Shown here: one piece after another, positions 12,426 through 25,174 of the stretch
Layout: the number at the start of each line of letters is the position of its first letter
Numbering within the stretch: the stretch's first letter is position 1
Source: an uncultured Enterobacterales bacterium
Lineage (GTDB): Bacteria; Myxococcota_A; UBA796; CAJQPC01
DNA: 64,000 bases
Reading direction: 5' to 3'
NCBI GenBank assembly: GCA_964604165.1
Contig: CAZRYF010000016.1
Location: 5,229-69,228, forward strand
Notes under the pieces: model-generated
What the model saw: only the letters and a program-made list of their open reading frames with translations
The model's database searches: none
What the model was told of the DNA's origin: nothing
Program-made: the position numbers and the translations under genes

Positions 12426-13610
12426 CTACCCTCCGTCGCGCAGAGTTGTGTCCAGGTCGTTGTCCCAATTCTCGTTGTGGGTCCGGTCCCCCAGCTCCAA
12501 GACAGCTGCGCTTAGCAGGTGCGTGAGAGCGTGTGGGGTGGGGGCCAGGTCGCCGGGGTCGTCCAAGCGGACTCCTTGCCCGGCGGGTTGTTCCACCCAC
12601 AGCTCGCTGTAGGTGGAGTCAGGCAGCAGTCGGGTCCACGCGCCTTTCGAGTCAAACACCTGGGCAAGCCCGAACACGTGGGGCGAATCGTCAATGTGCT
12701 GGGCGTGATCGGTTTCGCCCCCGAGGATGATGACCCCCATATCGGGTTGCCTGGCCACTGCCCCCGGCGCCAGTCGGCTGGCGTCTCGCCAGGCAAACCA
12801 GTCCAGGGCTTCTTGTTCTTCCTGGCGGCCGGGGTTCGGGGAGAGAGCACGCACAAGAGAGGGGGAGTGCAGGCGCCCTTCCTCCAGCAAGAGTCCCTCA
12901 AAAACTGGCTCATCCTCTCCTGGAAGTCCGTCGTTGTCTCGATCCAAGAAGGGAGGAGACGCGTCCACCAGTTGGTCGTAGGCCATTTCGCAGACAAGAC
13001 CATCTCCATCCAGCGCCGAGAAGCCACACTCGCCTCGCTCGGGATCCCGCAGCTCGGTGAGTAGGAATTGAGGACCTGCAGGCGTCTCCCAGACCACGAG
13101 GCCTGCGACTTTCGGTACGTCCACGTCGGAATCGGCCAGGGTCGCCACCGCCAGGTTTCCACCGTTGCTTCGGCCGATGAGCACCACAGGGAGGGGGCCC
13201 TCTACGTTCAGCATTTCAAGGAGGGTGACTCCCTCAGTGTTCGGTGTGCTGCCCCCGGCAAATCGAAGAGCCGCGCCCACCGCCTGCCGAGAACCAGCGC
13301 CGTGGTAGTCCATTTCGCCGCCGGTCGTGGGAGAACCTTCCCCTCCAGGCAGCTCCACATGCACCTGAACCAGTCCCACATCCTGGCGAAGGAGGTGGTC
13401 TCCACTGGCGGGAAGTTGGTTGGGAGAGAACCCCCCGGGCAAGACCACGCCCACGACACGAGGCAGATCAACCGGGCTCTCGAAGAGGACTTCCAGTGCC
13501 ACATCCTCCACCAGAAGCAACTCGCGCACCGCCTCGGGCGCGGGGCGGCAGCCACCGATGACCGTGGCCAGTAGCATGGCCAGGGGTGGGGCGTGGGTCG
13601 TGGTAGTCAT
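12426..13610 (-). CDS. Lipoprotein, alpha/beta-hydrolase-like
   Basis: The ATG at 13610 (GGGAG upstream) gives 'MTTTTHAPPLAMLLATVIGGC'. 'VVLIGRSNGGNLA' fits the G-x-S-x-G nucleophile elbow. Confidence 0.5.
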   Translation of the reverse strand: MTTTTHAPPLAMLLATVIGGCRPAPEAVRELLLVEDVALEVLFESPVDLPRVVGVVLPGGFSPNQLPASGDHLLRQDVGLVQVHVELPGGEGSPTTGGEMDYHGAGSRQAVGAALRFAGGSTPNTEGVTLLEMLNVEGPLPVVLIGRSNGGNLAVATLADSDVDVPKVAGLVVWETPAGPQFLLTELRDPERGECGFSALDGDGLVCEMAYDQLVDASPPFLDRDNDGLPGEDEPVFEGLLLEEGRLHSPSLVRALSPNPGRQEEQEALDWFAWRDASRLAPGAVARQPDMGVIILGGETDHAQHIDDSPHVFGLAQVFDSKGAWTRLLPDSTYSELWVEQPAGQGVRLDDPGDLAPTPHALTHLLSAAVLELGDRTHNENWDNDLDTTLRDGG

Positions 13611-13665
13611 CAAGTGTGCGCTCCCACGCCGAGTCTTGCCAGACTTGGTGCCATTCGCAAGCCCC

Positions 13666-16056
13666 ATGACCAAGATTCTCTCCCCACTGCCAGTGGAATT
13701 GCTTCGACGAAGAGTCGACCCGAACGAGTTGGGATTCTCCTGCACATCGGAGCTTGCGACCGCAGACATCATCATCGGGCAGGAGCGGGCCCTCAAGGCG
13801 ATTCACCGGGCCATGGCCGTGGATGGCCCCGGATTCAACCTTTTTGCGGTGGGGCTGGCCCGCACGGGACGACAGGCCACGGTGCGGAAGATCTTCGATG
13901 AACTCAAGCCGCGGCGACGGCGGCGGCGGGACTTTGTCTTCGTCCAGAACCTGGAGAACACCGCTCGTCCCCGGGTGCTGGTGTTGCCGGTGGGGCGGGC
14001 CGACGAGCTGCGCCAGGACCTGCATGATCTGCGCCGCCGCCTGCCAACGGTCATCAAGAACCTGTTGGACCAGGAGGTGCTTCGTAAAGCGCGGGAGATG
14101 GCCTCTCTTCACCAGGAAATCGATACCCGCACAGCCTACGTGGAGCTGGGTGGATTGGCAGGGGAATACGGCCTTACCCTGGGAAGCATTGGGGAAGGAG
14201 GCGAGGCAAGACCAGCCTTGTTCTACGTCCACGAAGAACAGCCCCTCTCCCGGGCTGCCCTGCGGGTCGGCGTGGAGACCGGCGAGGTGCAACTGGATCG
14301 GCCTTCGGAAGAGGTCGCCAGTGCTTTCGACACCATGAGCAAGGTGCTCGCCATGCGCATGGCGGAGCTCTCCCAGGTGGCCCTGGAGCGACAGCGTGAG
14401 GTGTTGCGGTTGCAGCGGCGCGGAATCTTCGAGGGCCTGCGGCCTGTGTTTGAGCCCCTGCGGAAGCGGTTTACCCCGGCGCGTTCTTGGCTCACTACCT
14501 TGCAGCGGGCGGTCTCCCACTCTTTCCATGTCTTCTCCGAGGGACCGGAAGCGGGGGTGTCGGATGAGCAGGCGCTCCTGGAGGCGTTCTACCCCAACAT
14601 CATCCACCGGGGAGCACGCACCCAGAAGGCACCGGTCATTGTGGTGGCGGATCCCAGCTTTGCCAACGTGATGGGGGGCGTGGATATGGGGCTCGGTGAG
14701 GGCTCTCCCACCGCAGGCTTCTCCCGGCTGCGGGCAGGTGCACTGCTGGATGCAGATGGCGGCTACCTCATTCTCAATGCCCGGGCGCTGCTAGAGGAGC
14801 CCCTGACTTGGCGGGCCCTGAAGCGGGCCCTGGTGGGGTCCCAATGGGAGGTTCGAAACCCCGAGACGCTCACGGGCGGAGCGGTGGCCCCGATTCGCGC
14901 GGAGCCGGTGCCCCTGGACGTCAAGGTGGTGCTGCTGGGCGATCCGGGGGTGTACGAGATGTTGCGGTCCCGGGACCCGGAGTTTCAGAACCTGTTCAAG
15001 ATCAAGGCGGAGTTTTCCCCGCAGGTGGACTTCACGGAGGAGACCCTCGGGCAGTACGGTCAAATCATCGCCCGCATGGTGGCTGACTCCGGGCTGAAAC
15101 ACCTGGATCATGAAGCGGTGGCCCGGTTGGTGGAGGAGGCTATCCGACACGGGGGAAGGGGGGGGCAGATCTCAGCGCGGTTTGAGAGGATCAAGGACGT
15201 CGTGCGCGAGGCCGGGCAGGTGGCTGAGGGAGGGGTGGTGCACAGGCGTGATCTGGAGCGGGCCCTCTGGGAGCGGGAGGAGCGCGTGGAGCTCTCCCGC
15301 GTGCGAATGGACCGCGCCATTCGCGAGGGTCGGATCCGCATTCAAGTATCGGGAGAGGTCGTGGGCCAGGTCAACGCCCTTGCGGTCTACCACACGGGGG
15401 ATCTGGACTTTGGGCGGGCCTTTCGGGTCACAGCCCAGGTGGGCGCTGGCAGGGGTGGGGTGGCCTCCATCGAGCGCGAGGTGGGAATGTCCGGCCGAAC
15501 CCACGACAAGGGGATGCGGATTCTCACAGGGTTTCTTCGGGGTCACTTCGCTCGCACGCGCACTCTGGCCATGAAAGCATCCATTTGCTTTGAGCAGTCG
15601 TATGTGCGGATCGATGGTGACTCGGCCTCTGCCGCTGAGCTTCTCGCTTTGCTCTCTGCCATTTCCCGGGTACCCCTGCGCCAGTCCATGGCGATCACCG
15701 GTTCTGTGGATCAGTTCGGATTTGTGCAGGCCATTGGTGGCGTGAACGAAAAGATCGAGGGGTTCTTTCGGACTTGCCGGGAAGGGGGGCTCACCGGGGA
15801 TCAGGGAGTTTTGATCCCTGAAACCAACGTGTCGGATCTCATGCTCTCCCAGGAAGTGTGCGATGCGTGCGCCGCGGGCGACTTTCAAGTGTGGCCTGTT
15901 TCTCGGGTGGAGGAGGCGCTGGCGCTCTTGACCGGACGGCCGGTGGCATCGGCTGCAGACCCGGACTCCTGGGAAGAAGGAGGCGTTTTTGCATTGGTAG
16001 CGGCAGCGCTGGAAGAAATGGAGACCACCGTGCGCAAGGCCAGCCGCGGGAAGTAA
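13666..16056 (+). CDS. Lon-like protease with degenerate AAA module (LonC/LonB-like)
   Basis: The C-terminal S16 domain has an intact Ser-Lys dyad context ('RIDGDSASAAELLALLSA', 'IGGVNEKIEGFF'). The N-terminal P-loop position reads 'AVGLARTGRQATV' instead of GxxGxGK[ST]. ATG at 13666 ('MTKILSPLP'). Confidence 0.8.
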   Translation: MTKILSPLPVELLRRRVDPNELGFSCTSELATADIIIGQERALKAIHRAMAVDGPGFNLFAVGLARTGRQATVRKIFDELKPRRRRRRDFVFVQNLENTARPRVLVLPVGRADELRQDLHDLRRRLPTVIKNLLDQEVLRKAREMASLHQEIDTRTAYVELGGLAGEYGLTLGSIGEGGEARPALFYVHEEQPLSRAALRVGVETGEVQLDRPSEEVASAFDTMSKVLAMRMAELSQVALERQREVLRLQRRGIFEGLRPVFEPLRKRFTPARSWLTTLQRAVSHSFHVFSEGPEAGVSDEQALLEAFYPNIIHRGARTQKAPVIVVADPSFANVMGGVDMGLGEGSPTAGFSRLRAGALLDADGGYLILNARALLEEPLTWRALKRALVGSQWEVRNPETLTGGAVAPIRAEPVPLDVKVVLLGDPGVYEMLRSRDPEFQNLFKIKAEFSPQVDFTEETLGQYGQIIARMVADSGLKHLDHEAVARLVEEAIRHGGRGGQISARFERIKDVVREAGQVAEGGVVHRRDLERALWEREERVELSRVRMDRAIREGRIRIQVSGEVVGQVNALAVYHTGDLDFGRAFRVTAQVGAGRGGVASIEREVGMSGRTHDKGMRILTGFLRGHFARTRTLAMKASICFEQSYVRIDGDSASAAELLALLSAISRVPLRQSMAITGSVDQFGFVQAIGGVNEKIEGFFRTCREGGLTGDQGVLIPETNVSDLMLSQEVCDACAAGDFQVWPVSRVEEALALLTGRPVASAADPDSWEEGGVFALVAAALEEMETTVRKASRGK

Positions 16057-16064
16057 GAGCGCCG

Positions 16065-16784
16065 CTACTCGCAGGTCTCGTTGGGGTCCTCATAGGCGAG
16101 CAGGCTCAGACTGCTGACGACCACGGGATGGGTCGGGTCGTTGGAGGCCACTTGCAGGACCCCCTCGTAGGCTCCTCCTGCCTGGGGAGTGGCCAGGATC
16201 TCCAGCGTCGCAGTGCCACCCGGTTCCACCGATTCGGCGGAGGAATCGACGAGGGAAAAGCTCCCGCTCACAGTGACTGAGTCAATTTCCAGGGACTCCT
16301 CTCCCGGGTTCTCCAATGTGGCGACCTGGCGGAGATCGCAATGAATCGGCCGGAATCCAAAGTCCACAGACTCCGGGGACAGGCTTGCCACGGGAGCCAC
16401 CCCGGCTCCGGTAAACCTGACCAGTTGCTCCCCGTTGGGGACCAGCCAGGCTTCCCAGCTCGCGTTGGTTGTGGGGGCAAAGGTGACCTGGATGTCCAAG
16501 ACATCGCCATCCTCCAGATCCACGAGGGCGGGGGCATCCGTGGTGAACACCGCCTCGTCACCTACGACCCGATCCAGGCCGGCAATCACCAGGGTCTGTT
16601 CACCGGAGTTCCGTGCGCTGATGGTGCGGGAAGACGTTCCATCCTGGAGGACCGAGAGAGAGCCAAAATCGACTTCTGCGGGCAGCACCACCAGCCGGCC
16701 CTCCCTGGGCGGCGGGCCAGCGGAGTCGTCTTCGCCTGGGCCGAAGGGCTCACAGGCCGCAAGTAGGAGGAGCGTCCCCAGCAT
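16065..16784 (-). CDS. Lipoprotein with two Ig-like (ASH/PapD-like) domains
   Basis: 'MLGTLLLLAACEPFG' (lipobox LAAC). Two repeats carry the pattern 'VDFG...V/R...T..L.N.G...L.I..v' typical of Ig-like beta-sandwich domains in envelope proteins. Confidence 0.6.
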   Translation of the reverse strand: MLGTLLLLAACEPFGPGEDDSAGPPPREGRLVVLPAEVDFGSLSVLQDGTSSRTISARNSGEQTLVIAGLDRVVGDEAVFTTDAPALVDLEDGDVLDIQVTFAPTTNASWEAWLVPNGEQLVRFTGAGVAPVASLSPESVDFGFRPIHCDLRQVATLENPGEESLEIDSVTVSGSFSLVDSSAESVEPGGTATLEILATPQAGGAYEGVLQVASNDPTHPVVVSSLSLLAYEDPNETCE

Positions 16785-16810
16785 GGACCCACGGTACCTC
16801 GTGCAGTGGG

Positions 16811-18403
16811 TCAGCGCAGGTGGGTCCCCAGGGTGAGTCCATGTTCCAGGGAGGAGGTCCAGACGTCTGCGTAGGGGTAGGGAACGCCCCGGAACTCGTA
16901 CCGCAGCACCAGGTCTCTGCGGTGGCTAAGGGGCATAGCAAGCTGGGCAGCCACACCCGGGGCCAGGGTTGTCGTTGCCTGGCGATGGGGGCCGCCCTGG
17001 TCCTCAAAAAAGCGCCAGGGAACGACCCATTCCACCTGTGGACCCACCCGGAACCGCCGGCCAGGAGCACCCAACGGAGCGACCATCCCGAGGGCCGCGG
17101 CCCCGGATTGAACGGTCGTGAGGGGTCCCTGCTCCTCGACGATTCCGCTCCCATAGGTGGCTCGGAGTCGAATCGAAGGGGACATCCAGGACGGCCCGAC
17201 AGTCAGCCACTTGTGGGCTTGGACCTCCAGGGACACGGGGTTCATCACCCCTGCGCCGGGTCCGTGGCGAAGCACGGCGCCCGCGGCCAGTCCCACCTCA
17301 GATTCGAAAAGCAGATCCTCGGCCCGGTAGGTTTTTCCTGCCTCCAGGCGAACGCGCCGTCGAACCAGCGTCTGGTTCTGGGCGTCTCGAATCTCGATGA
17401 CATGGGCGCCGGGGGCCACATCGATCACGTCGGGCAGCACCCCCCGGGGCTGGCCATCCACCAGGACCGCCCCCTTGGCGAGAATGGCGTCGGCCGCGGT
17501 CAGTAGTGCCCGTTCAGCGTGACTCCGGGTGGAATCGTTCCCGGCAAGGTAGATCTTCTCCCGGCCCACAATACGGAATTCGGCTCGCGGAACCTGCATC
17601 CCGCCCGTGTGTTCGATGGTGGCGTCCCGCGCCCAGTCGTGGGCTTCCGTCACATCTACCAGGCCGTCTCGATCCAGATCCGCGGTGCGGGCAGAGTCTG
17701 TCAGGGCATCAATGAGAAAGTGCGTGTAGACCCCGTTTTCCAATTTGGGGTCCTCCATGGCTGGCTGGTAATACTGGGCGGCGTACAGCCGGGCCTCGGA
17801 TTCACTGACGTTTCGCAGACTGCGGGGTGGAGGCGGATCCCCTTTCAGTCCAGCAAGCAGCTTGGAGGTCTCGCTGCCCAGGGAGGACTTGTCCCGGCCA
17901 TTGTGGCAGGTGTCCAGGACCAGTACCCTGCGCCGGGCATCCACCGCCCCCACGGTCTCCTCCAGCCAGTCCACCGCCAAGCCTGTCTCTTTCGCCTTGG
18001 AGAGCACCCCGTCGGAGGGCAAGAACCACAAGCGAGTGCCCTCCGTGGGGTCCAGGGTCAGGGTGCCGTGTCCCGACATGTACAGCAGAAAGGTGTCATC
18101 TCGCTGGAGGCCGGAGGTGGCCTCATGGATCGCTGTCTCGATCTGGGTTCGGCTGGCGGTCTTTTGCGTGTCGAGTACGCGCACGTGGTCAAACCCGGCG
18201 TCTCCCCCCAACGCAGCGGCCAGGTCTCGAGCGTCCTTTCCCGAAAAGCGCAGGGGGGCCAACTCCGGGTCTCCGTAGTTGTCCACGCCGACCAGCAGGG
18301 CGACGCGGCGGGGGGCGTAGGCCGTCTCCAGGTCCGCCGGTGTCGGCGTGGAACCCAGGCTGCCGGCCAGGGCCACGGGCAGAAAGAGAAGAGAACCAAT
18401 CAT
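16811..18403 (-). CDS. Secreted caspase-family (peptidase C14) protein with PEGA-like and C-terminal beta-rich domains
   Basis: Signal peptide 'MIGSLLFLPVALAGS'. 'VALLVGVDNYGD', 'FLLYMSGHGT' (His) and 'VLVLDTCHNG' (Cys) form the caspase dyad. 'DLDRDGLVDVTE' is a Ca-binding-like loop. 'VLVDGQPRGVLPDVIDVAPGAHVIEIR' is PEGA-like. About 190 aa of alternating beta-strand pattern follow at the C-terminus. ATGA overlap with the upstream gene. Confidence 0.8.
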   Translation of the reverse strand: MIGSLLFLPVALAGSLGSTPTPADLETAYAPRRVALLVGVDNYGDPELAPLRFSGKDARDLAAALGGDAGFDHVRVLDTQKTASRTQIETAIHEATSGLQRDDTFLLYMSGHGTLTLDPTEGTRLWFLPSDGVLSKAKETGLAVDWLEETVGAVDARRRVLVLDTCHNGRDKSSLGSETSKLLAGLKGDPPPPRSLRNVSESEARLYAAQYYQPAMEDPKLENGVYTHFLIDALTDSARTADLDRDGLVDVTEAHDWARDATIEHTGGMQVPRAEFRIVGREKIYLAGNDSTRSHAERALLTAADAILAKGAVLVDGQPRGVLPDVIDVAPGAHVIEIRDAQNQTLVRRRVRLEAGKTYRAEDLLFESEVGLAAGAVLRHGPGAGVMNPVSLEVQAHKWLTVGPSWMSPSIRLRATYGSGIVEEQGPLTTVQSGAAALGMVAPLGAPGRRFRVGPQVEWVVPWRFFEDQGGPHRQATTTLAPGVAAQLAMPLSHRRDLVLRYEFRGVPYPYADVWTSSLEHGLTLGTHLR

Positions 18404-19083
18404 GGGGCCACCTCCACCATCCTGGCATCACAGGACCAGCCTTGCCCACGTGCTCGCTGGCAAAGGTGGGCAGGGTCTCCGCTGAGCGTCTCCACAAGGG
18501 CCAGGGAAGACAGAGGTTCTTTGTGGCCCACGAGGGCGAAGAACCCTTGGGAGTCGGAGGCGTCAAGGGACCAGGCATGGACAGAGTGGGACTCTCCCAG
18601 GTCGCTTTGACCCGCTTCCATGAACTGGGTGGCCACAACCTCCACGGAGTCCGCCGCATGGACCAGGTACACCCACCCGGGGTCGGAGAGATGGGCCCGG
18701 AAGAACAGGGTGTCTCCTTTGGAGTACTGCGTGCCCACCGCGTGACGAGAGATGGTCTCTCCCTGTTTCACGGCCATCTTCAACGAAAGGGAAGGAGCGG
18801 TTGCCTCCAGTCCCTTGGCCACCATGTGGTCGGTGTTCTTCGGCTCTTCCAGCCCGGGCGCCTGGATCCACATGAGCGCGGACGCCGCCAGGGCCAGTCC
18901 GACGCCGGCCCAGATTCGCCGCGGTGCCCGACGTGGGCGGATGCCCCACTCTTCATCGACTTGAGAGAGGGTGCGCTCGGCGAGTCCTGGTGGCAGGGAG
19001 GCGGTGGCCAGGGAACTCCGCACTGCGGGTGTTGGCTCGGGCTCGTCCCCCAGCAACCACTCTTTGAGTGCTGCTTCATGCAT
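18400..19083 (-). CDS. Single-pass anti-sigma factor candidate with DUF4384-like extracytoplasmic domain
   Basis: Lies immediately after, and overlaps, the ECF sigma gene. One TM helix 'IWAGVGLALAASALMWI'. The periplasmic part contains 'YSKGDTLFFRAHLSDPGWVYLVHA'. The start is ATG 19083 or 19092 (AAGGA upstream). Confidence 0.6.
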   Translation of the reverse strand: MHEAALKEWLLGDEPEPTPAVRSSLATASLPPGLAERTLSQVDEEWGIRPRRAPRRIWAGVGLALAASALMWIQAPGLEEPKNTDHMVAKGLEATAPSLSLKMAVKQGETISRHAVGTQYSKGDTLFFRAHLSDPGWVYLVHAADSVEVVATQFMEAGQSDLGESHSVHAWSLDASDSQGFFALVGHKEPLSSLALVETLSGDPAHLCQRARGQGWSCDARMVEVAP

Positions 19084-19615
19084 CGGGGGCATCCTTCGCG
19101 AGAGCGACTCGAAGAGCCGCCCTTGCCCGGGAGATACGGGCGCGGGCGTTGTCCGGGGAGATTCCCACCATTTGGGCGACCTCCCGGTGGTCGAATCCCT
19201 GAACTGGCCCCAGGAGAAAGGCCTCTCGCAGAGGATCTGGCAAAGAGGCAATGGCGGCTTCCACGTCCAGGGTTCCGCCGGCGGGGCGGGTGGTTCTGGA
19301 CTTGTGCTCCCGGTCCAACTCCACCTCTTCAATGCGGCGACCGCTCGTGCGCAGGGCGTCGTGGAAGGTGTTTGCCGCAATTCGAAACAGCCAAGGTTTG
19401 AACATCTGGCCTGTCTTGAAGGTGCTGCGGCTGCGGTAGACCTTGAGCCAGGTCTCCTGGAAGAGGTCTTCCGCCTGGACCCCACGGCGGGTGCGTCGCA
19501 CCAGGAAACCGTAGACGGATCCCTGGTGTCTCTCAAAGAGGGCCTGGTAGCTGGGCCTGTCCCCGTGCTGCACCCGGAGCATCAGTTCCTCGTCTGTGAG
19601 AGTGATGCGTGACAT
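19076..19615 (-). CDS. ECF-type RNA polymerase sigma-70 factor
   Basis: Region 2 'DLFQETWLKVYRSR' and region 4 'REAFLLGPVQGFDHREVAQMVGISPDNARARISRARAALR'. The 179-aa size is typical of ECF sigmas. Confidence 0.85.
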   Translation of the reverse strand: MSRITLTDEELMLRVQHGDRPSYQALFERHQGSVYGFLVRRTRRGVQAEDLFQETWLKVYRSRSTFKTGQMFKPWLFRIAANTFHDALRTSGRRIEEVELDREHKSRTTRPAGGTLDVEAAIASLPDPLREAFLLGPVQGFDHREVAQMVGISPDNARARISRARAALRVALAKDAPDA

Positions 19616-19632: not shown

Positions 19633-21180
19633 CTACGCCCTTTGGCGGGTGGGTGTGACAGGAAATCGCAGTCCCGCTGCCGCCAGAACACTCAGAAGGA
19701 GGCAGAGCATCGGGAACCAATCCCCGTGCTTCCGGTAGAAGGTGTCGATGCGGCCGGGTTTGATCTCGACCACCCGGGCGACCTCCTCATAGGGGGCGGT
19801 CTCATGGGAGATGCGGCCCACAGGGTCGGCGTTGAGGCTGACGCCGGTGTAGGCCACTCTGTACATGGGAATCCCCAGCTCCACCGTGCGGTTGATGGAG
19901 AGCATGGCGTGCTGGTGAGGTGCAAACATACTGCCGAACCAACCGTCGTTGGTCACGTTGACAATCAGATCCCCCGCCGAGTGGTTCTTTCGAATGAACG
20001 GTCCCAGGATGGCCTCGTAGCAGATGGCCACCGTGAAACGGAAGCCCGGGGCCTCAAAGACGACCGGCTTGTCACCAGCCTCGAAGTCTCCTGGGCCCTT
20101 GATCCACTCTTTGAGAATCGGAAAGGTGTCGGCCAGGGGGATGTACTCTCCGAAGGGGAGCGGCACCATCTTGTCGTATCGGTCTGCCAGCTCTCCGTCT
20201 TCATTCACCAGGTAGACGGAATTACGGTACTCGCGAAACTTGCGGCCGGTGTCTGGGTCGACCTTTCGCTCAGAGAATCCCGCGCCGAGCAGGAGCGGTG
20301 CTCCGAGATTGCGGGTGACATTCTCCAGGAAACCCCGAATCCGATAGGCGCTGTTGGGTCGGGGATCGTGCAGGATGGCCCCTTCCGGCCAAACGACAAG
20401 GTCTACATCCTCCCGGATCAGGCGATCACTCAAGATCTTCCAGGAGCGAAGCGTCTCCACGGCGGATTGCGCCATGCGCACCTGCATGGTGACCTCGTGT
20501 TGGATCTGAGTGACGCGGACCGTGGGCCAGGTCTCGGTGATTGCATCGATGCGCTCTACGCGGGCGGCTCCCCAGGCCGCATTGGCAAGAGCCAGTCCCG
20601 TAGCCCCTGCCAGGAGTCCCCGCGGCGCCCCCGCCCCTTCACGCGCCCGGTAGATCCACTCTGCAATGGCGCAATTGAGGAAGAGGATCAGCCAGGAGAC
20701 GCCGGCTGTTCCGGTCACGCTCGCAAGCTGAATGACCGGGAGTACCTTGTACTGGAAGGAGCCCACAAAGAACGGAAACAGCGACCAGATAAAGAACTCC
20801 AGCACCACGAACCAGCAGGGAATCAGCAACGTCCAGGCCGCGCCATAGCGGCGGCGGATCTGCGGCACCCAAGCAAAAGCCAGGGCCCATGGAATCGCGA
20901 AGAAGAGTGCGTACAAATGCACCGCTACGATGCACAGGATGGGGGGCACATTGGAGTAGATGACGAGGGTTTCTGCCAGCCAGAAAAAGCAGGTGCAGAG
21001 GCCTGCGTAGCCGGTGAGATAGGCCAGGACGGTGTTTCCGGCGGTGTCGTCCTCCCGCAGTGACCAAAGCAGGGGCACGTAGAGCACCCAGGTCAGGTGA
21101 GCCCAATTCAGCGGTGGCGAGACGATTGCCAACCCCAGGCCTGAAAGGATGGCTGCAGCAAATCGGCCCGGCGTAATCAT
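19633..21180 (-). CDS. lnt: Apolipoprotein N-acyltransferase
   Basis: Polytopic N-terminus plus a CN-hydrolase domain with 'VAICYEAILGPF' (catalytic Cys) and 'NVTNDGWFG'. The ATG at 21180 ('MITPGRFAAAIL') removes a spurious N-terminal extension that mirrors the neighbour's repeat. Confidence 0.85.
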   Translation of the reverse strand: MITPGRFAAAILSGLGLAIVSPPLNWAHLTWVLYVPLLWSLREDDTAGNTVLAYLTGYAGLCTCFFWLAETLVIYSNVPPILCIVAVHLYALFFAIPWALAFAWVPQIRRRYGAAWTLLIPCWFVVLEFFIWSLFPFFVGSFQYKVLPVIQLASVTGTAGVSWLILFLNCAIAEWIYRAREGAGAPRGLLAGATGLALANAAWGAARVERIDAITETWPTVRVTQIQHEVTMQVRMAQSAVETLRSWKILSDRLIREDVDLVVWPEGAILHDPRPNSAYRIRGFLENVTRNLGAPLLLGAGFSERKVDPDTGRKFREYRNSVYLVNEDGELADRYDKMVPLPFGEYIPLADTFPILKEWIKGPGDFEAGDKPVVFEAPGFRFTVAICYEAILGPFIRKNHSAGDLIVNVTNDGWFGSMFAPHQHAMLSINRTVELGIPMYRVAYTGVSLNADPVGRISHETAPYEEVARVVEIKPGRIDTFYRKHGDWFPMLCLLLSVLAAAGLRFPVTPTRQRA

Positions 21181-21261: not shown

Positions 21262-22458
21262 GTGTGGATGATGCTTGTTCTGTGGATGTTGGGTGGATGG
21301 GTGTGGGCGGAACCGGTCGACGGGGCCCTGGAGAGTGTTCCCGCGGTGGAAGAGGCGCCGGCCGTGGAAGAGGCGCCGGCCGTGGAAGAGGCGCCGGCCG
21401 TGGAAGAGGCGCCGGCCGTGGAAGAGGCGCCGGCGTTTGGGGGGATCACGGAGGAAGAACTGCACGCCCTGGAGGCTGCATCCTTTTACAAGATTGGGTT
21501 GGAGTTGGTGGCGCGCGGGTCCTTTGCCGAGGCGCTGGCGATTTTTCGGCAGGTGGAGGACCGCTATCCTGTGACAGCTGCCTCAGCGGGGGCCGCCGGT
21601 CAGATCGCGGCCTTGGAGGCCCTTGCCCAGGCTGGAAACCTTGAGACCCCTCGAGGCGGGCTGGATGGCGTGACGGAGCTCGCCATCAACCAGGCCATCG
21701 CCATGCCCCTGATCATGGGTCTGCTCCTGCCGGGGGCTACATTTCAACCCGGGGAGCCCCTGGTTCCTGTGGCCATGGGCATGGCTGGGATGGGGGTTGG
21801 AATCGGCGGGGCCATGGTCCTGGACCAGATCCGGGGTGTGGACACAGCGTTCGCCATGTCCCTGTTCACGGGAGAGTGGCTGGGGGCCCTGAACGGGCTC
21901 GCGGTCTCCGCAAAGTGGCCCCCTCGCGGCTACAGGGGGCTCTGGGCAGAGACCTTGACGGGCACCTTGTTGGGTGCTGGAGCTGCAGTGGCGGCGAATC
22001 AGTACTTGGATGTGACTGCAGGGCAGGTGGCTTCCATGAACACCGGCGCTTTGTGGGGGGGGTATGCTGGCCTTATGTCCCAGGAGTTTGACACCCCGGC
22101 AGACGGCCTCGTGAGAACCACTGCCTTCGTGAACAGCGGTGCCTTGATTGGGGCGGCATTGGGCACCCGGTTTGACCCTGATCGGAGGCGTGTGAACATG
22201 ATCACGCTCTCAGGGGTTGCCGGTACGGCCATGGCGGGGGGGACGGCGATTCTGCTGAACTTCTATGGCAGCTTGTACGACGATGAGCCTACGGTGGCGC
22301 TGATCATGGGCGGTTCAGCCGCGGGCCTGGGCCTTGGAGCATTCTTGACCCGGAACGCTGACCCGCACCGCGGTGCCGTGGCTGCATCGTCCTTGCAGTT
22401 GGCTCCCTTCGCGGGTCAGAACGGGGAGCTGGGCCTTGGAGCACAGGGGACCTGGTAG
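21262..22458 (+). CDS. Hypothetical Gly/Ala-rich membrane protein with (PAVEEA)x5 linker
   Basis: Signal-like 'MWMMLVLWMLGGWVWA', a 5x 6-aa tandem repeat, a TPR-like helix pair 'FYKIGLELVARGSFAEALAIFRQVEDRYP', then several Gly-rich hydrophobic segments. Confidence 0.55.
   Translation: MWMMLVLWMLGGWVWAEPVDGALESVPAVEEAPAVEEAPAVEEAPAVEEAPAVEEAPAFGGITEEELHALEAASFYKIGLELVARGSFAEALAIFRQVEDRYPVTAASAGAAGQIAALEALAQAGNLETPRGGLDGVTELAINQAIAMPLIMGLLLPGATFQPGEPLVPVAMGMAGMGVGIGGAMVLDQIRGVDTAFAMSLFTGEWLGALNGLAVSAKWPPRGYRGLWAETLTGTLLGAGAAVAANQYLDVTAGQVASMNTGALWGGYAGLMSQEFDTPADGLVRTTAFVNSGALIGAALGTRFDPDRRRVNMITLSGVAGTAMAGGTAILLNFYGSLYDDEPTVALIMGGSAAGLGLGAFLTRNADPHRGAVAASSLQLAPFAGQNGELGLGAQGTW
21346..21435 (+). 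repeat. Perfect 5 x 18-bp tandem repeat (encodes (V/A)EEAPA x5)
   Basis: GTGGAAGAGGCGCCGGCC is repeated head-to-tail five times. Only the final base of the last unit differs. In frame within the 21262-22458 CDS. Confidence 0.95.
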
Positions 22459-22462
22459 ATTC

Positions 22463-23107
22463 TTAGAAAGACCAGGTCACCTCTCGGTTCTCAAGCTTGA
22501 GCAGCACCGTGCCCGTTCCGGTGCCGGTTTCGGACCACCAGCTATCCAACAAGGTGACAAGCATGTAGGACAGGTCCTCGGTCACCGGGTCGTTGCAGGT
22601 GTCTCCCTGGTCGTTGTGCACAATGAAAAGCTCCACTTCTGGAGGCGAGTCACTGGAGAACTCCCGGTTCCAGCACACGTCAATGTAGTGCTCGGTACAG
22701 CCACCTGTGTACCCGACGCTCAACTCAAGCAGGTTGCGGTCCGTCACGTTCATGGAGCTTAGCGTGAGGGCTGCGCTGTCCATCTCGGCAGGGCAGTCCA
22801 CAACGGGGGGATTGTCGAGCCGGCCGATGCCCGTGTCCATACTGGTGTCTACGTCCGCATCGCTGTCAGAGTCGCTGTCGGCGTCGGTGTCAGAGTCACT
22901 GTCAGAGTCGCTGTCGGCGTCGCTGTCGGCGTCAGCGTCTCCGCCTTTGCCTCCGCTGGCTGGTACGCAGGTTCCCTCGTTGGTCATGAGGTACCCCTCC
23001 ATGCAGGCCGTGGGCTTGCAGGCGCTGAGGAGTAGGAGGGAGAGCAGGGTCACAACTGGCAATGTAGTCTTCGAACCCGGTGCAATGCCAGGGTGGCCCC
23101 GAAGCAA
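22463..23107 (-). CDS. Hypothetical lipoprotein with Asp/Ser/Ala acidic linker
   Basis: TTG start gives 'MLRGHPGIAPGSKTTLPVVTLLSLLLLSAC' (lipobox LSAC). A 31-aa 'DADADSDADSDSDSDSDTDADSDSDSDADVD' tract precedes a Cys-containing globular domain. Confidence 0.55.
   Translation of the reverse strand: MLRGHPGIAPGSKTTLPVVTLLSLLLLSACKPTACMEGYLMTNEGTCVPASGGKGGDADADSDADSDSDSDSDTDADSDSDSDADVDTSMDTGIGRLDNPPVVDCPAEMDSAALTLSSMNVTDRNLLELSVGYTGGCTEHYIDVCWNREFSSDSPPEVELFIVHNDQGDTCNDPVTEDLSYMLVTLLDSWWSETGTGTGTVLLKLENREVTWSF
22847..22939 (-). repeat. Imperfect GAC-NNN hexanucleotide repeat tract (Asp-Ser/Ala/Thr linker)
   Basis: gtcgctgtc/ggcgtc/agagtc-type units encode DADADSDADSDSDSDSDTDADSDSDSDADVD. Confidence 0.8.

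Positions 23108-23157: not shown

Positions 23158-25174
<2,017 letters not shown>

Follow-up and report, generated by a model that had tools for sequence, protein, structure and literature searches.

Caspase homologues are abundant in bacteria, and few of them have a known substrate or role. In the type III-E CRISPR craspase, the caspase-like protease Csx29 (TPR-CHAT) cleaves Csx30, an inhibitor of the extracytoplasmic function (ECF) sigma factor CASP-sigma/RpoE (PMC10028731; bioRxiv 10.1101/2022.08.17.504292), and the C-terminal domains of some Csx30 proteins are DUF4384. DdvA of Myxococcus xanthus is a transmembrane anti-sigma factor with a periplasmic TPR-CHAT caspase-fold domain, and has been proposed to cut the linker of its partner protomer (self-cleavage) before RseP acts. 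Orthocaspases cut after basic residues (PMC6426788), and the literature describes DUF4384 as often fused to proteases and orthocaspases, with DUF4384-type domains joined to caspases and also to inactive pseudo-orthocaspases. Here we describe an operon in a 64-kb stretch of DNA from an uncultured bacterium (64,000 nucleotides (nt), hereafter the window) that encodes an ECF sigma factor, a single-pass anti-sigma factor, a secreted caspase-family protein and an immunoglobulin (Ig)-like lipoprotein. We propose, with a probability of roughly 0.45, that this is an autoregulated trans-envelope ECF operon whose outer-membrane-anchored caspase makes the site-1 cut in the anti-sigma factor.

The genes of the unit, its candidate promoter and its usual upstream neighbour are as follows (window coordinates; lengths in amino acids, aa):

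19076-19615, minus strand: ECF (group IV) sigma factor, 179 aa, with Sigma70_r2 and Sigma70_r4_2
18400-19083, minus strand: single-pass anti-sigma factor, 227 aa, with a helical cytoplasmic N-terminus, one transmembrane helix, a periplasmic linker and a beta-sandwich
16811-18403, minus strand: secreted caspase-family protein (Peptidase C14, orthocaspase-type), 530 aa
16065-16784, minus strand: Ig-like lipoprotein, 239 aa, lipobox LLAAC, last gene of the unit
19634-19659, minus strand: candidate ECF-type autoregulatory promoter GTCACA-N16-CGTA (-35 at 19654-19659, -10 at 19634-19637)
19633-21180, minus strand: lnt (apolipoprotein N-acyltransferase; LNT_N and CN_hydrolase), the usual upstream neighbour, true start uncertain

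The sigma stop and the anti-sigma ATG, the latter inside the sigma gene, overlap by 8 nt (19076-19083), an ATGA overlap at 18400-18403 joins the anti-sigma gene to the caspase gene, and a 26-nt gap separates the caspase gene from the lipoprotein ATG (16784). On the other side, 17 nt separate the sigma ATG (19615) from the lnt stop (19633-19635) upstream of it. An earlier annotation made from the letters of the window without database searches (the sequence-only reading) had described the four minus-strand open reading frames (ORFs) in this way, and the ORF list and sequence agree with it at every junction. The same 227-aa anti-sigma ORF was called by independent gene callers in four metagenome records.

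We examined the neighbourhoods of anti-sigma and caspase homologues, which always contained the sigma, anti-sigma and caspase genes and usually the Ig-like protein. A scan of one genome per species returned 69 loci, all in metagenome-assembled genomes (MAGs) and mostly labelled Myxococcota or Deltaproteobacteria, and the triad was also found in metagenome loci. Mapping with hidden Markov models (HMMs) found sigma followed by anti-sigma and caspase in each of the 59 Myxococcota-type loci with sufficient upstream sequence; initial flags of a missing triad in four loci (L017, L056, L059 and L075) were artefacts of stop-to-stop ORF starts, for which HMM mapping gives the correct order, and the contig encoding one further homologue (P0260) is too short to show neighbours. 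The gene arrangement is far beyond chance, as the 4-nt overlap between anti-sigma and caspase genes recurs in 61/64 related loci; the sigma and anti-sigma genes overlap by 4 nt in 47/55 loci (8 nt in the window). Of the 49 loci that extend far enough upstream, 46 have lnt next to the operon; L008, L033 and L048 lack it and in L028 it lies 2.3 kb away, so that lnt is a usual rather than an obligatory neighbour. Several MAGs carrying the operon (L012, L014, L051, L053, L067 and others) have public records under Enterobacterales, Klebsiella pneumoniae or Bifidobacterium breve, names that on carriers of a Myxococcota-type operon look like taxonomic mislabels.

The triad also extends beyond this lineage. 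Two Gammaproteobacteria MAGs carry it with caspases only ~28% identical, a K-G dipeptide in the anti-sigma linker and a C-terminal outer-membrane-protein motif; in one of them (L080) the 4-nt overlap is present and the downstream gene encodes an unrelated 451-aa protein. Remote anti-sigma relatives likewise adjoin C14 genes, one in the usual order and one rearranged (caspase, sigma, anti-sigma), with a redoxin sensor domain on the anti-sigma factor. In such a variant module on a Myxococcota_A UBA2385 contig (L082, 865-5065) the order is redoxin, C14 caspase, ECF sigma, anti-sigma, and a periplasmic AhpC/TSA thioredoxin-like domain replaces the beta-sandwich of the anti-sigma factor; the partnership with the caspase is thus retained and the sensor domain exchanged. 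The sequence-only reading had named absence of the triad from other genomes as a refuting condition, and the triad is clearly conserved outside this genome. These comparisons support a conserved, translationally coupled unit of sigma, anti-sigma, caspase and Ig-like protein.

The first gene product matches Sigma70_r2 (3.9e-19) and Sigma70_r4_2 (8.5e-12) in Pfam and the NCBIfam sigma70-ECF superfamily model TIGR02937 (2.4e-25; 89 bits against a cutoff of 42.9), which places it among the ECF (group IV) sigma-70 factors; every match to an NCBIfam equivalog model fell below the cutoff of that model. Counting k-mers in the 320 nt upstream of sigma revealed the motif TGTCACA-N16-CGTA, which is present upstream of sigma in 69 of 80 loci, that is, in every locus covering that region. 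The corresponding position matrix reads cTGTCACACC-N12-cGGCGTAg, and the spacer is 16 nt in 58/63 distinct sites. Within the window the motif matches once, with 0.05 matches expected by chance, and a scan with the position matrix found no second copy in the window, so that no further regulon members were identified; two loci (L019 and L062) contain a second, unplaced match besides the one upstream of sigma. The motif is kept where lnt is absent (L008, L033, L048) and where lnt ends upstream of it (L025, L029, L034 and others), and therefore does not reflect a coding constraint of lnt. The classic GGAAC/TGAAC-N-CGT pattern of ECF promoters is absent upstream of sigma. ECF promoters typically combine a CGTA -10 element with a spacer of 16 nt, and the operon is therefore most likely autoregulated from its own promoter. 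The overlap of the sigma and anti-sigma genes together with the conserved candidate motif matches what is expected of ECF factors, namely a cognate anti-sigma gene transcribed along with sigma and autoregulation from a promoter that has a conserved -35 and a CGT-type -10. In the window, lnt ends in a TAG codon (19633-19635) that shares bases with the CGTA of the candidate -10. Its counterparts in many related loci end in TAG or TAA, again inside CGTA, so that a housekeeping gene and a regulated promoter are packed together with unusual tightness.

The anti-sigma factor and the caspase contain the following parts (pLDDT, per-residue confidence of the AlphaFold2 (AF2) models):

18859-18912, minus strand: predicted transmembrane helix of the anti-sigma factor, residues ~58-75, WAGVGLALAASALMWIQA, a hydrophobic stretch (AF2 helix 58-70)
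18811-18816, minus strand: Lys90-Gly91, the conserved [K/R]-G in the periplasmic juxtamembrane linker, a candidate caspase cleavage/recognition site
18403-18801, minus strand: DUF4384-like periplasmic beta-sandwich plus two helices with a Cys208/Cys218 pair, residues ~95-227 (pLDDT ~95)
17588-18310, minus strand: C14 catalytic domain of the caspase, residues 32-272, with His112 at 18068-18070 and Cys166 at 17906-17908
17339-17476, minus strand: small beta domain after the caspase domain, residues ~310-355 (AF2 strands 312-353, pLDDT 85-93)
16814-17296, minus strand: predicted C-terminal 8-stranded outer-membrane beta-barrel anchor, residues ~370-530 (pLDDT ~95)

The AF2 model of the anti-sigma factor shows three short N-terminal helices of modest confidence, the transmembrane helix, a low-confidence linker and a beta-sandwich of very high confidence, in which the Cys pair is conserved. 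A single transmembrane helix, as in class I and zinc-binding anti-sigma factors, is thus found in the window protein, and relatives show a hydrophobic peak at the equivalent position. A word-indexed homologue search under-sampled this family (11-12 matches), whereas an exhaustive profile search returned 513 cluster representatives at E ≤ 1e-3, of which 86 also passed E ≤ 1e-30. Among 106 aligned homologues, an N-terminal HxxxCxxC is present in 23 and Pfam zf-HC2 is reached by four (best 1.3e-8), and two further relatives are annotated zf-HC2 in their source records; the window protein lacks HxxxCxxC and has no zf-HC2 match. Since relatives carry these zinc motifs, we read the family as descending from zinc-binding anti-sigma factors, with the window copy having lost the zinc segment. 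Membership of the middle protein in a real anti-sigma family is thereby supported, and its binding and inhibition of sigma are putative. A Foldseek search of the model against the PDB returned generic Ig-like sandwiches only, none at E ≤ 1e-3, and comparing the family profile with PDB sequences yielded no meaningful match.

The most conserved element of the anti-sigma factor lies in its linker. Column 91 is Gly in 106/106 relatives and is the sole invariant column, and column 90 is Arg in 68, Lys in 37 and Glu in one. About 15 residues separate this [K/R]-G from the end of the transmembrane helix; it falls in the low-confidence linker, immediately ahead of the first beta-strand, and the gammaproteobacterial proteins keep it as FKGE and TKGI. 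A short anti-sigma subfamily (~175-190 aa; P0200, P0215, P0225-P0256 and others) lacks the two C-terminal helices and the Cys pair but retains [K/R]-G and the YxxGD..FR core, and in locus L011 it still lies between sigma and caspase.

The sequence-only reading had seen in the periplasmic domain a resemblance to the core of DUF4384 (PF14326). The similarity is real, and the quoted motif YxxGDxLxFR...GWV is the aligned region in all four cases reported (two consensus sequences and two relatives). It is weak, however: the best match of a family consensus reaches 18.2 bits (E 0.0027; profile positions 2-37) against a cutoff of 27 bits, two relatives (P0008 and P0009) score 15.7-17.1 bits, matches cover only profile positions about 1-39 of 81, the N-terminal half, and none attained the gathering score across the domain. 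DUF4384 was matched by 3/106 members of the family, at best with 7.5e-4. The anti-sigma sandwich is probably a remote relative of DUF4384 rather than a member of it. The accompanying statement that DUF4384 is commonly fused to caspases agrees with the literature, in which fusion to proteases and orthocaspases is frequent.

The caspase matches Peptidase_C14 in Pfam over residues 32-272 (3.4e-13; 50.3 bits against a cutoff of 21.4), and both the caspase-hemoglobinase fold and the His-Cys dyad of C14 peptidases are found in it. More than 290 full-length homologues were recovered, with 45-89% identity among the matches listed, and His112 (SGHG) and Cys166 (DTCHNG) are invariant in 32 homologues. 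Beyond the catalytic Cys, a conserved L-[R/K]-G lies in the disordered linker, where R187 is kept in at least 90% of sequences and G188 in all; this linker is the usual place of self-processing in orthocaspase enzymes. The P1 specificity of the caspase is expected to be basic, judging from the DxCHxG motif type and from the literature on orthocaspases.

In the AF2 model the C14 domain is followed by a helix, the small beta domain and then eight long antiparallel strands. Foldseek matched the N-terminal part to MALT1 caspase-Ig3 (1e-9), metacaspase 4 (1.4e-6) and GSU0716 (1.5e-6), the MALT1 alignments also covering the region of the small beta domain, and the C-terminal part to the transmembrane domain of OmpA (3.9e-7, TM-score 0.67), OmpX, Ail and NspA; barrel matches ranged from E 1e-7 to 1e-6 with TM-scores of 0.62-0.68. 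The predicted fold therefore has the eight strands of small outer-membrane barrels (OmpA-TM/OmpX/OmpW-like), and the caspase homologue of L080 matches Pfam OMP_b-brl with 5.6e-6 and 27.1 bits, just below the cutoff of 28.7. An even number of strands puts both barrel termini in the periplasm, so the caspase domain should face this compartment. We predict that the caspase is catalytically active in the periplasm and anchored in the outer membrane, in line with the envelope location assigned to it before; PEGA (PF08308), raised at the same time, was not detected in the caspase by Pfam search.

The lipobox LLAAC of the last gene product was read directly from its sequence, which matches ASH/HYDIN Ig-like (1e-12, Pfam) and choice-of-anchor D (8.6e-20, NCBIfam) domains. 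A homologue follows the caspase in 51/69 genome loci and is usually longer (~510-530 aa where genes were called).

Conservation of the triad suggests that the protease controls the sigma switch. In the model that we infer, for topology, physical interaction of caspase and anti-sigma factor, cleavage, cleavage site and signal alike, sigma would be held at the inner membrane by the short helical N-terminus of the single-pass anti-sigma factor, while the co-translated caspase would be exported and anchored in the outer membrane by its C-terminal barrel, with the His-Cys domain facing the periplasm. Upon an envelope signal, the caspase would engage the DUF4384-like beta-sandwich and cut the exposed juxtamembrane linker after the conserved Lys/Arg of [K/R]-G (site 1). 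An RseP-type site-2 intramembrane protease and cytoplasmic proteases could then remove the remainder of the anti-sigma factor, and the freed sigma would transcribe from TGTCACA-N16-CGTA upstream of its own gene, amplifying the operon. The invariant [K/R]-G in a flexible linker is suggestive here, as it fits the basic-residue specificity of orthocaspases, and so is its resemblance to the caspase's own L-[R/K]-G. The retained gene overlaps, the invariant catalytic dyad and the confidently predicted barrel also speak for the model, as do the weak DUF4384 similarity, given the DUF4384 ends of some Csx30 proteins, and the precedent of DdvA, with its periplasmic caspase-fold domain proposed to act on an anti-sigma linker before RseP. 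Because the protease would insert in the outer membrane and its substrate in the inner membrane, the pair might report on the state of the outer membrane or of barrel assembly, or on periplasmic geometry, with the orthocaspase as dedicated site-1 protease, an extension of the model that we regard as possible and somewhat doubtful.

Several points weigh against caspase cleavage of the anti-sigma factor. All relatives come from uncultured MAGs, and the signal peptide of the window caspase is short and lacks a basic n-region. The DUF4384 similarity is below the Pfam cutoff and covers half of the profile, and the window anti-sigma factor alone gives no Pfam or NCBIfam match, even at E ≤ 1. The [K/R]-G dipeptide is short and could be conserved for folding or for another protease. 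Finally, co-operonic conservation would look identical were the caspase a mere output of sigma. Under that account, which we consider rather unlikely, caspase and Ig-like lipoprotein are sigma outputs, the anti-sigma factor senses by itself or is cut by a conventional protease, and the induced caspase processes other envelope substrates, for instance outer-membrane proteins that have been damaged or the Ig-like protein encoded next to it. Effector genes are common in ECF operons, the four genes lie behind a single conserved ECF-type promoter, so that the caspase is necessarily in the regulon, and the Ig-like protein follows the caspase in most Myxococcota-type loci. However, the downstream gene varies across phyla (L080), whereas the anti-sigma/caspase pair and its 4-nt overlap do not, and adjacency survives rearrangement of gene order. 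A mere output would also leave aside that the anti-sigma sensor domain resembles a protease-associated domain and that the invariant basic-Gly motif of the linker fits orthocaspase specificity.

A partnership without proteolysis, in which the beta-sandwich docks on the caspase or inhibits it as a pseudo-substrate, seems to us more improbable still; signalling would then proceed by binding and release as in FecA-FecR or RseB-RseA, or the anti-sigma factor would restrain a potentially toxic caspase. Fusions of DUF4384-type domains to inactive pseudo-orthocaspases suggest a regulatory or binding role rather than that of a substrate, and the predicted placement of one anchor in the outer membrane opposite the other in the inner membrane resembles the geometry of trans-envelope signalling pairs. 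Yet the catalytic His and Cys and their surrounding motifs are invariant across ~45-89% identity, which argues that proteolysis is under selection, and the most conserved anti-sigma element lies in the flexible linker and not in the folded domain. Inherited synteny without functional coupling, with the promoter-like motif kept by coding or some other constraint on the 3' end of lnt, is strongly disfavoured and effectively excluded: although most loci come from one broad Myxococcota-type lineage in which synteny from lnt (with GroES in at least two loci) through the operon is conserved, the triad recurs in Gammaproteobacteria and in rearranged form, the motif persists without lnt or where lnt ends upstream of it, and the overlapping start and stop codons are kept in 61/64 loci.

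The surroundings of the operon in the window hold further features. A gene for a LonB/LonC-like AAA+ protease (13420-16056, plus strand) converges on the end of the operon, its stop lying 8 nt from the lipoprotein stop, and the same Lon-like gene is found just downstream of the operon in L009, showing that wider synteny is conserved. Upstream of lnt, 23158-24825 (minus strand) encodes GroEL with a C-terminal GGM-repeat tail (9-nt repeat, 23164-23228). GroES and then a GroEL-sized gene precede lnt in L009 and L010, and synteny from the chaperonin genes via lnt to the ECF operon appears to be conserved. A perfect 18-nt tandem repeat of 4.9 copies at 21346-21434 encodes PAVEEA repeats on the plus strand, at the N-terminus of an ORF at 21262-22458, and spurious GRRLFH repeats on the minus strand, within the over-long lnt ORF; translation of lnt itself probably begins near residue 96, given that the Pfam LNT_N match starts at residue 108. 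A putative lipoprotein at 22463-23107 (minus strand) has a long Asp/Ser-rich low-complexity stretch, DADSDSDSDSDT, encoded by tandem repeats of 12/24/36 nt at 22853-22934, and no Pfam match.

Literature searches on orthocaspases or caspases with ECF or anti-sigma factors found no description of such a module, nor any described orthocaspase with a C-terminal outer-membrane barrel or a dedicated sigma/anti-sigma partnership, and the ECF reclassification paper makes no mention of caspases. The arrangement is real and strongly conserved and seems not to have been described before, and the predicted outer-membrane barrel on the caspase, the conserved candidate promoter and the [K/R]-G linker motif are new beyond the sequence-only reading. 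The view taken there that a caspase-class protease is unprecedented for anti-sigma factors was, however, overstated, given that Csx29 cleaves the ECF-sigma inhibitor Csx30 and that DdvA carries a periplasmic CHAT domain. The module is compact and widely conserved and offers a candidate substrate, a candidate cleavage site, a candidate read-out promoter and a predicted location for each part; with its candidate parts named, orthocaspase function becomes directly testable by reconstitution.

Compared with the craspase system, the proposed logic is similar, in that a caspase-like protease cuts a sigma inhibitor and frees an ECF sigma that autoregulates its locus, although for the operon described here the cleavage is a proposal; the DUF4384 of some Csx30 proteins is also the domain that the anti-sigma factor weakly resembles. 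Unlike the operon studied here, craspase is cytoplasmic and RNA-guided, without membranes or an outer-membrane anchor, its protease is of the CHAT type rather than C14, and Csx30 is soluble with an unrelated sigma-binding part. DdvA comes from the same phylum and likewise involves an ECF sigma held by a single-pass anti-sigma factor (of the zinc-binding, or ZAS, type) and a periplasmic caspase-fold His-Cys domain proposed to cut a flexible linker beside the transmembrane helix before RseP. In DdvA, however, CHAT is fused to the anti-sigma factor (~900 residues), acts as a dimer and has an incomplete active site, whereas the present operon encodes the protease apart from the anti-sigma factor, as a Peptidase_C14 protein that carries a predicted outer-membrane barrel, the anti-sigma factor has a small beta-sandwich only, and no defence-island context was seen at the locus. 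With a 130-residue sandwich end and the protease in a separate gene, the present system is not a member of the DdvA-type TPR-CHAT group, and it may work in a DdvA-like manner.

The RseA/DegS/RseP (sigma-E) pathway shares the single-pass anti-sigma factor and an autoregulated ECF promoter with a CGT-type -10, here a candidate. It also has a site-1 cut in the periplasm that answers to the state of the envelope and precedes site-2 cleavage, and for such a cut the present operon offers a candidate site and a candidate protease only. DegS is an inner-membrane serine protease activated by the C-termini of outer-membrane proteins, whereas the candidate here is a cysteine protease with a predicted outer-membrane anchor, and no RseB-like gene is present. 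Orthocaspases and metacaspases such as Microcystis MaOC1 and Geobacter GSU0716 (PDB 3bij) share with the caspase the His-Cys dyad in SGHG and DxCHxG, the fold, an expected cleavage after Arg/Lys and a frequent association with DUF4384. If the proposal is true, the few enzymes known to initiate the degradation of anti-sigma factors would be joined by a cysteine protease anchored in the outer membrane. Control of a transmembrane anti-sigma factor would then be shown for a Peptidase_C14 enzyme for the first time, and the DUF4384-like domain would gain a first physiological role, as the target-recognition handle of a caspase. Craspase with Csx30, DdvA and the operon described here would then be three instances of one recurring scheme, the switching of ECF sigma factors by caspase-fold proteases.

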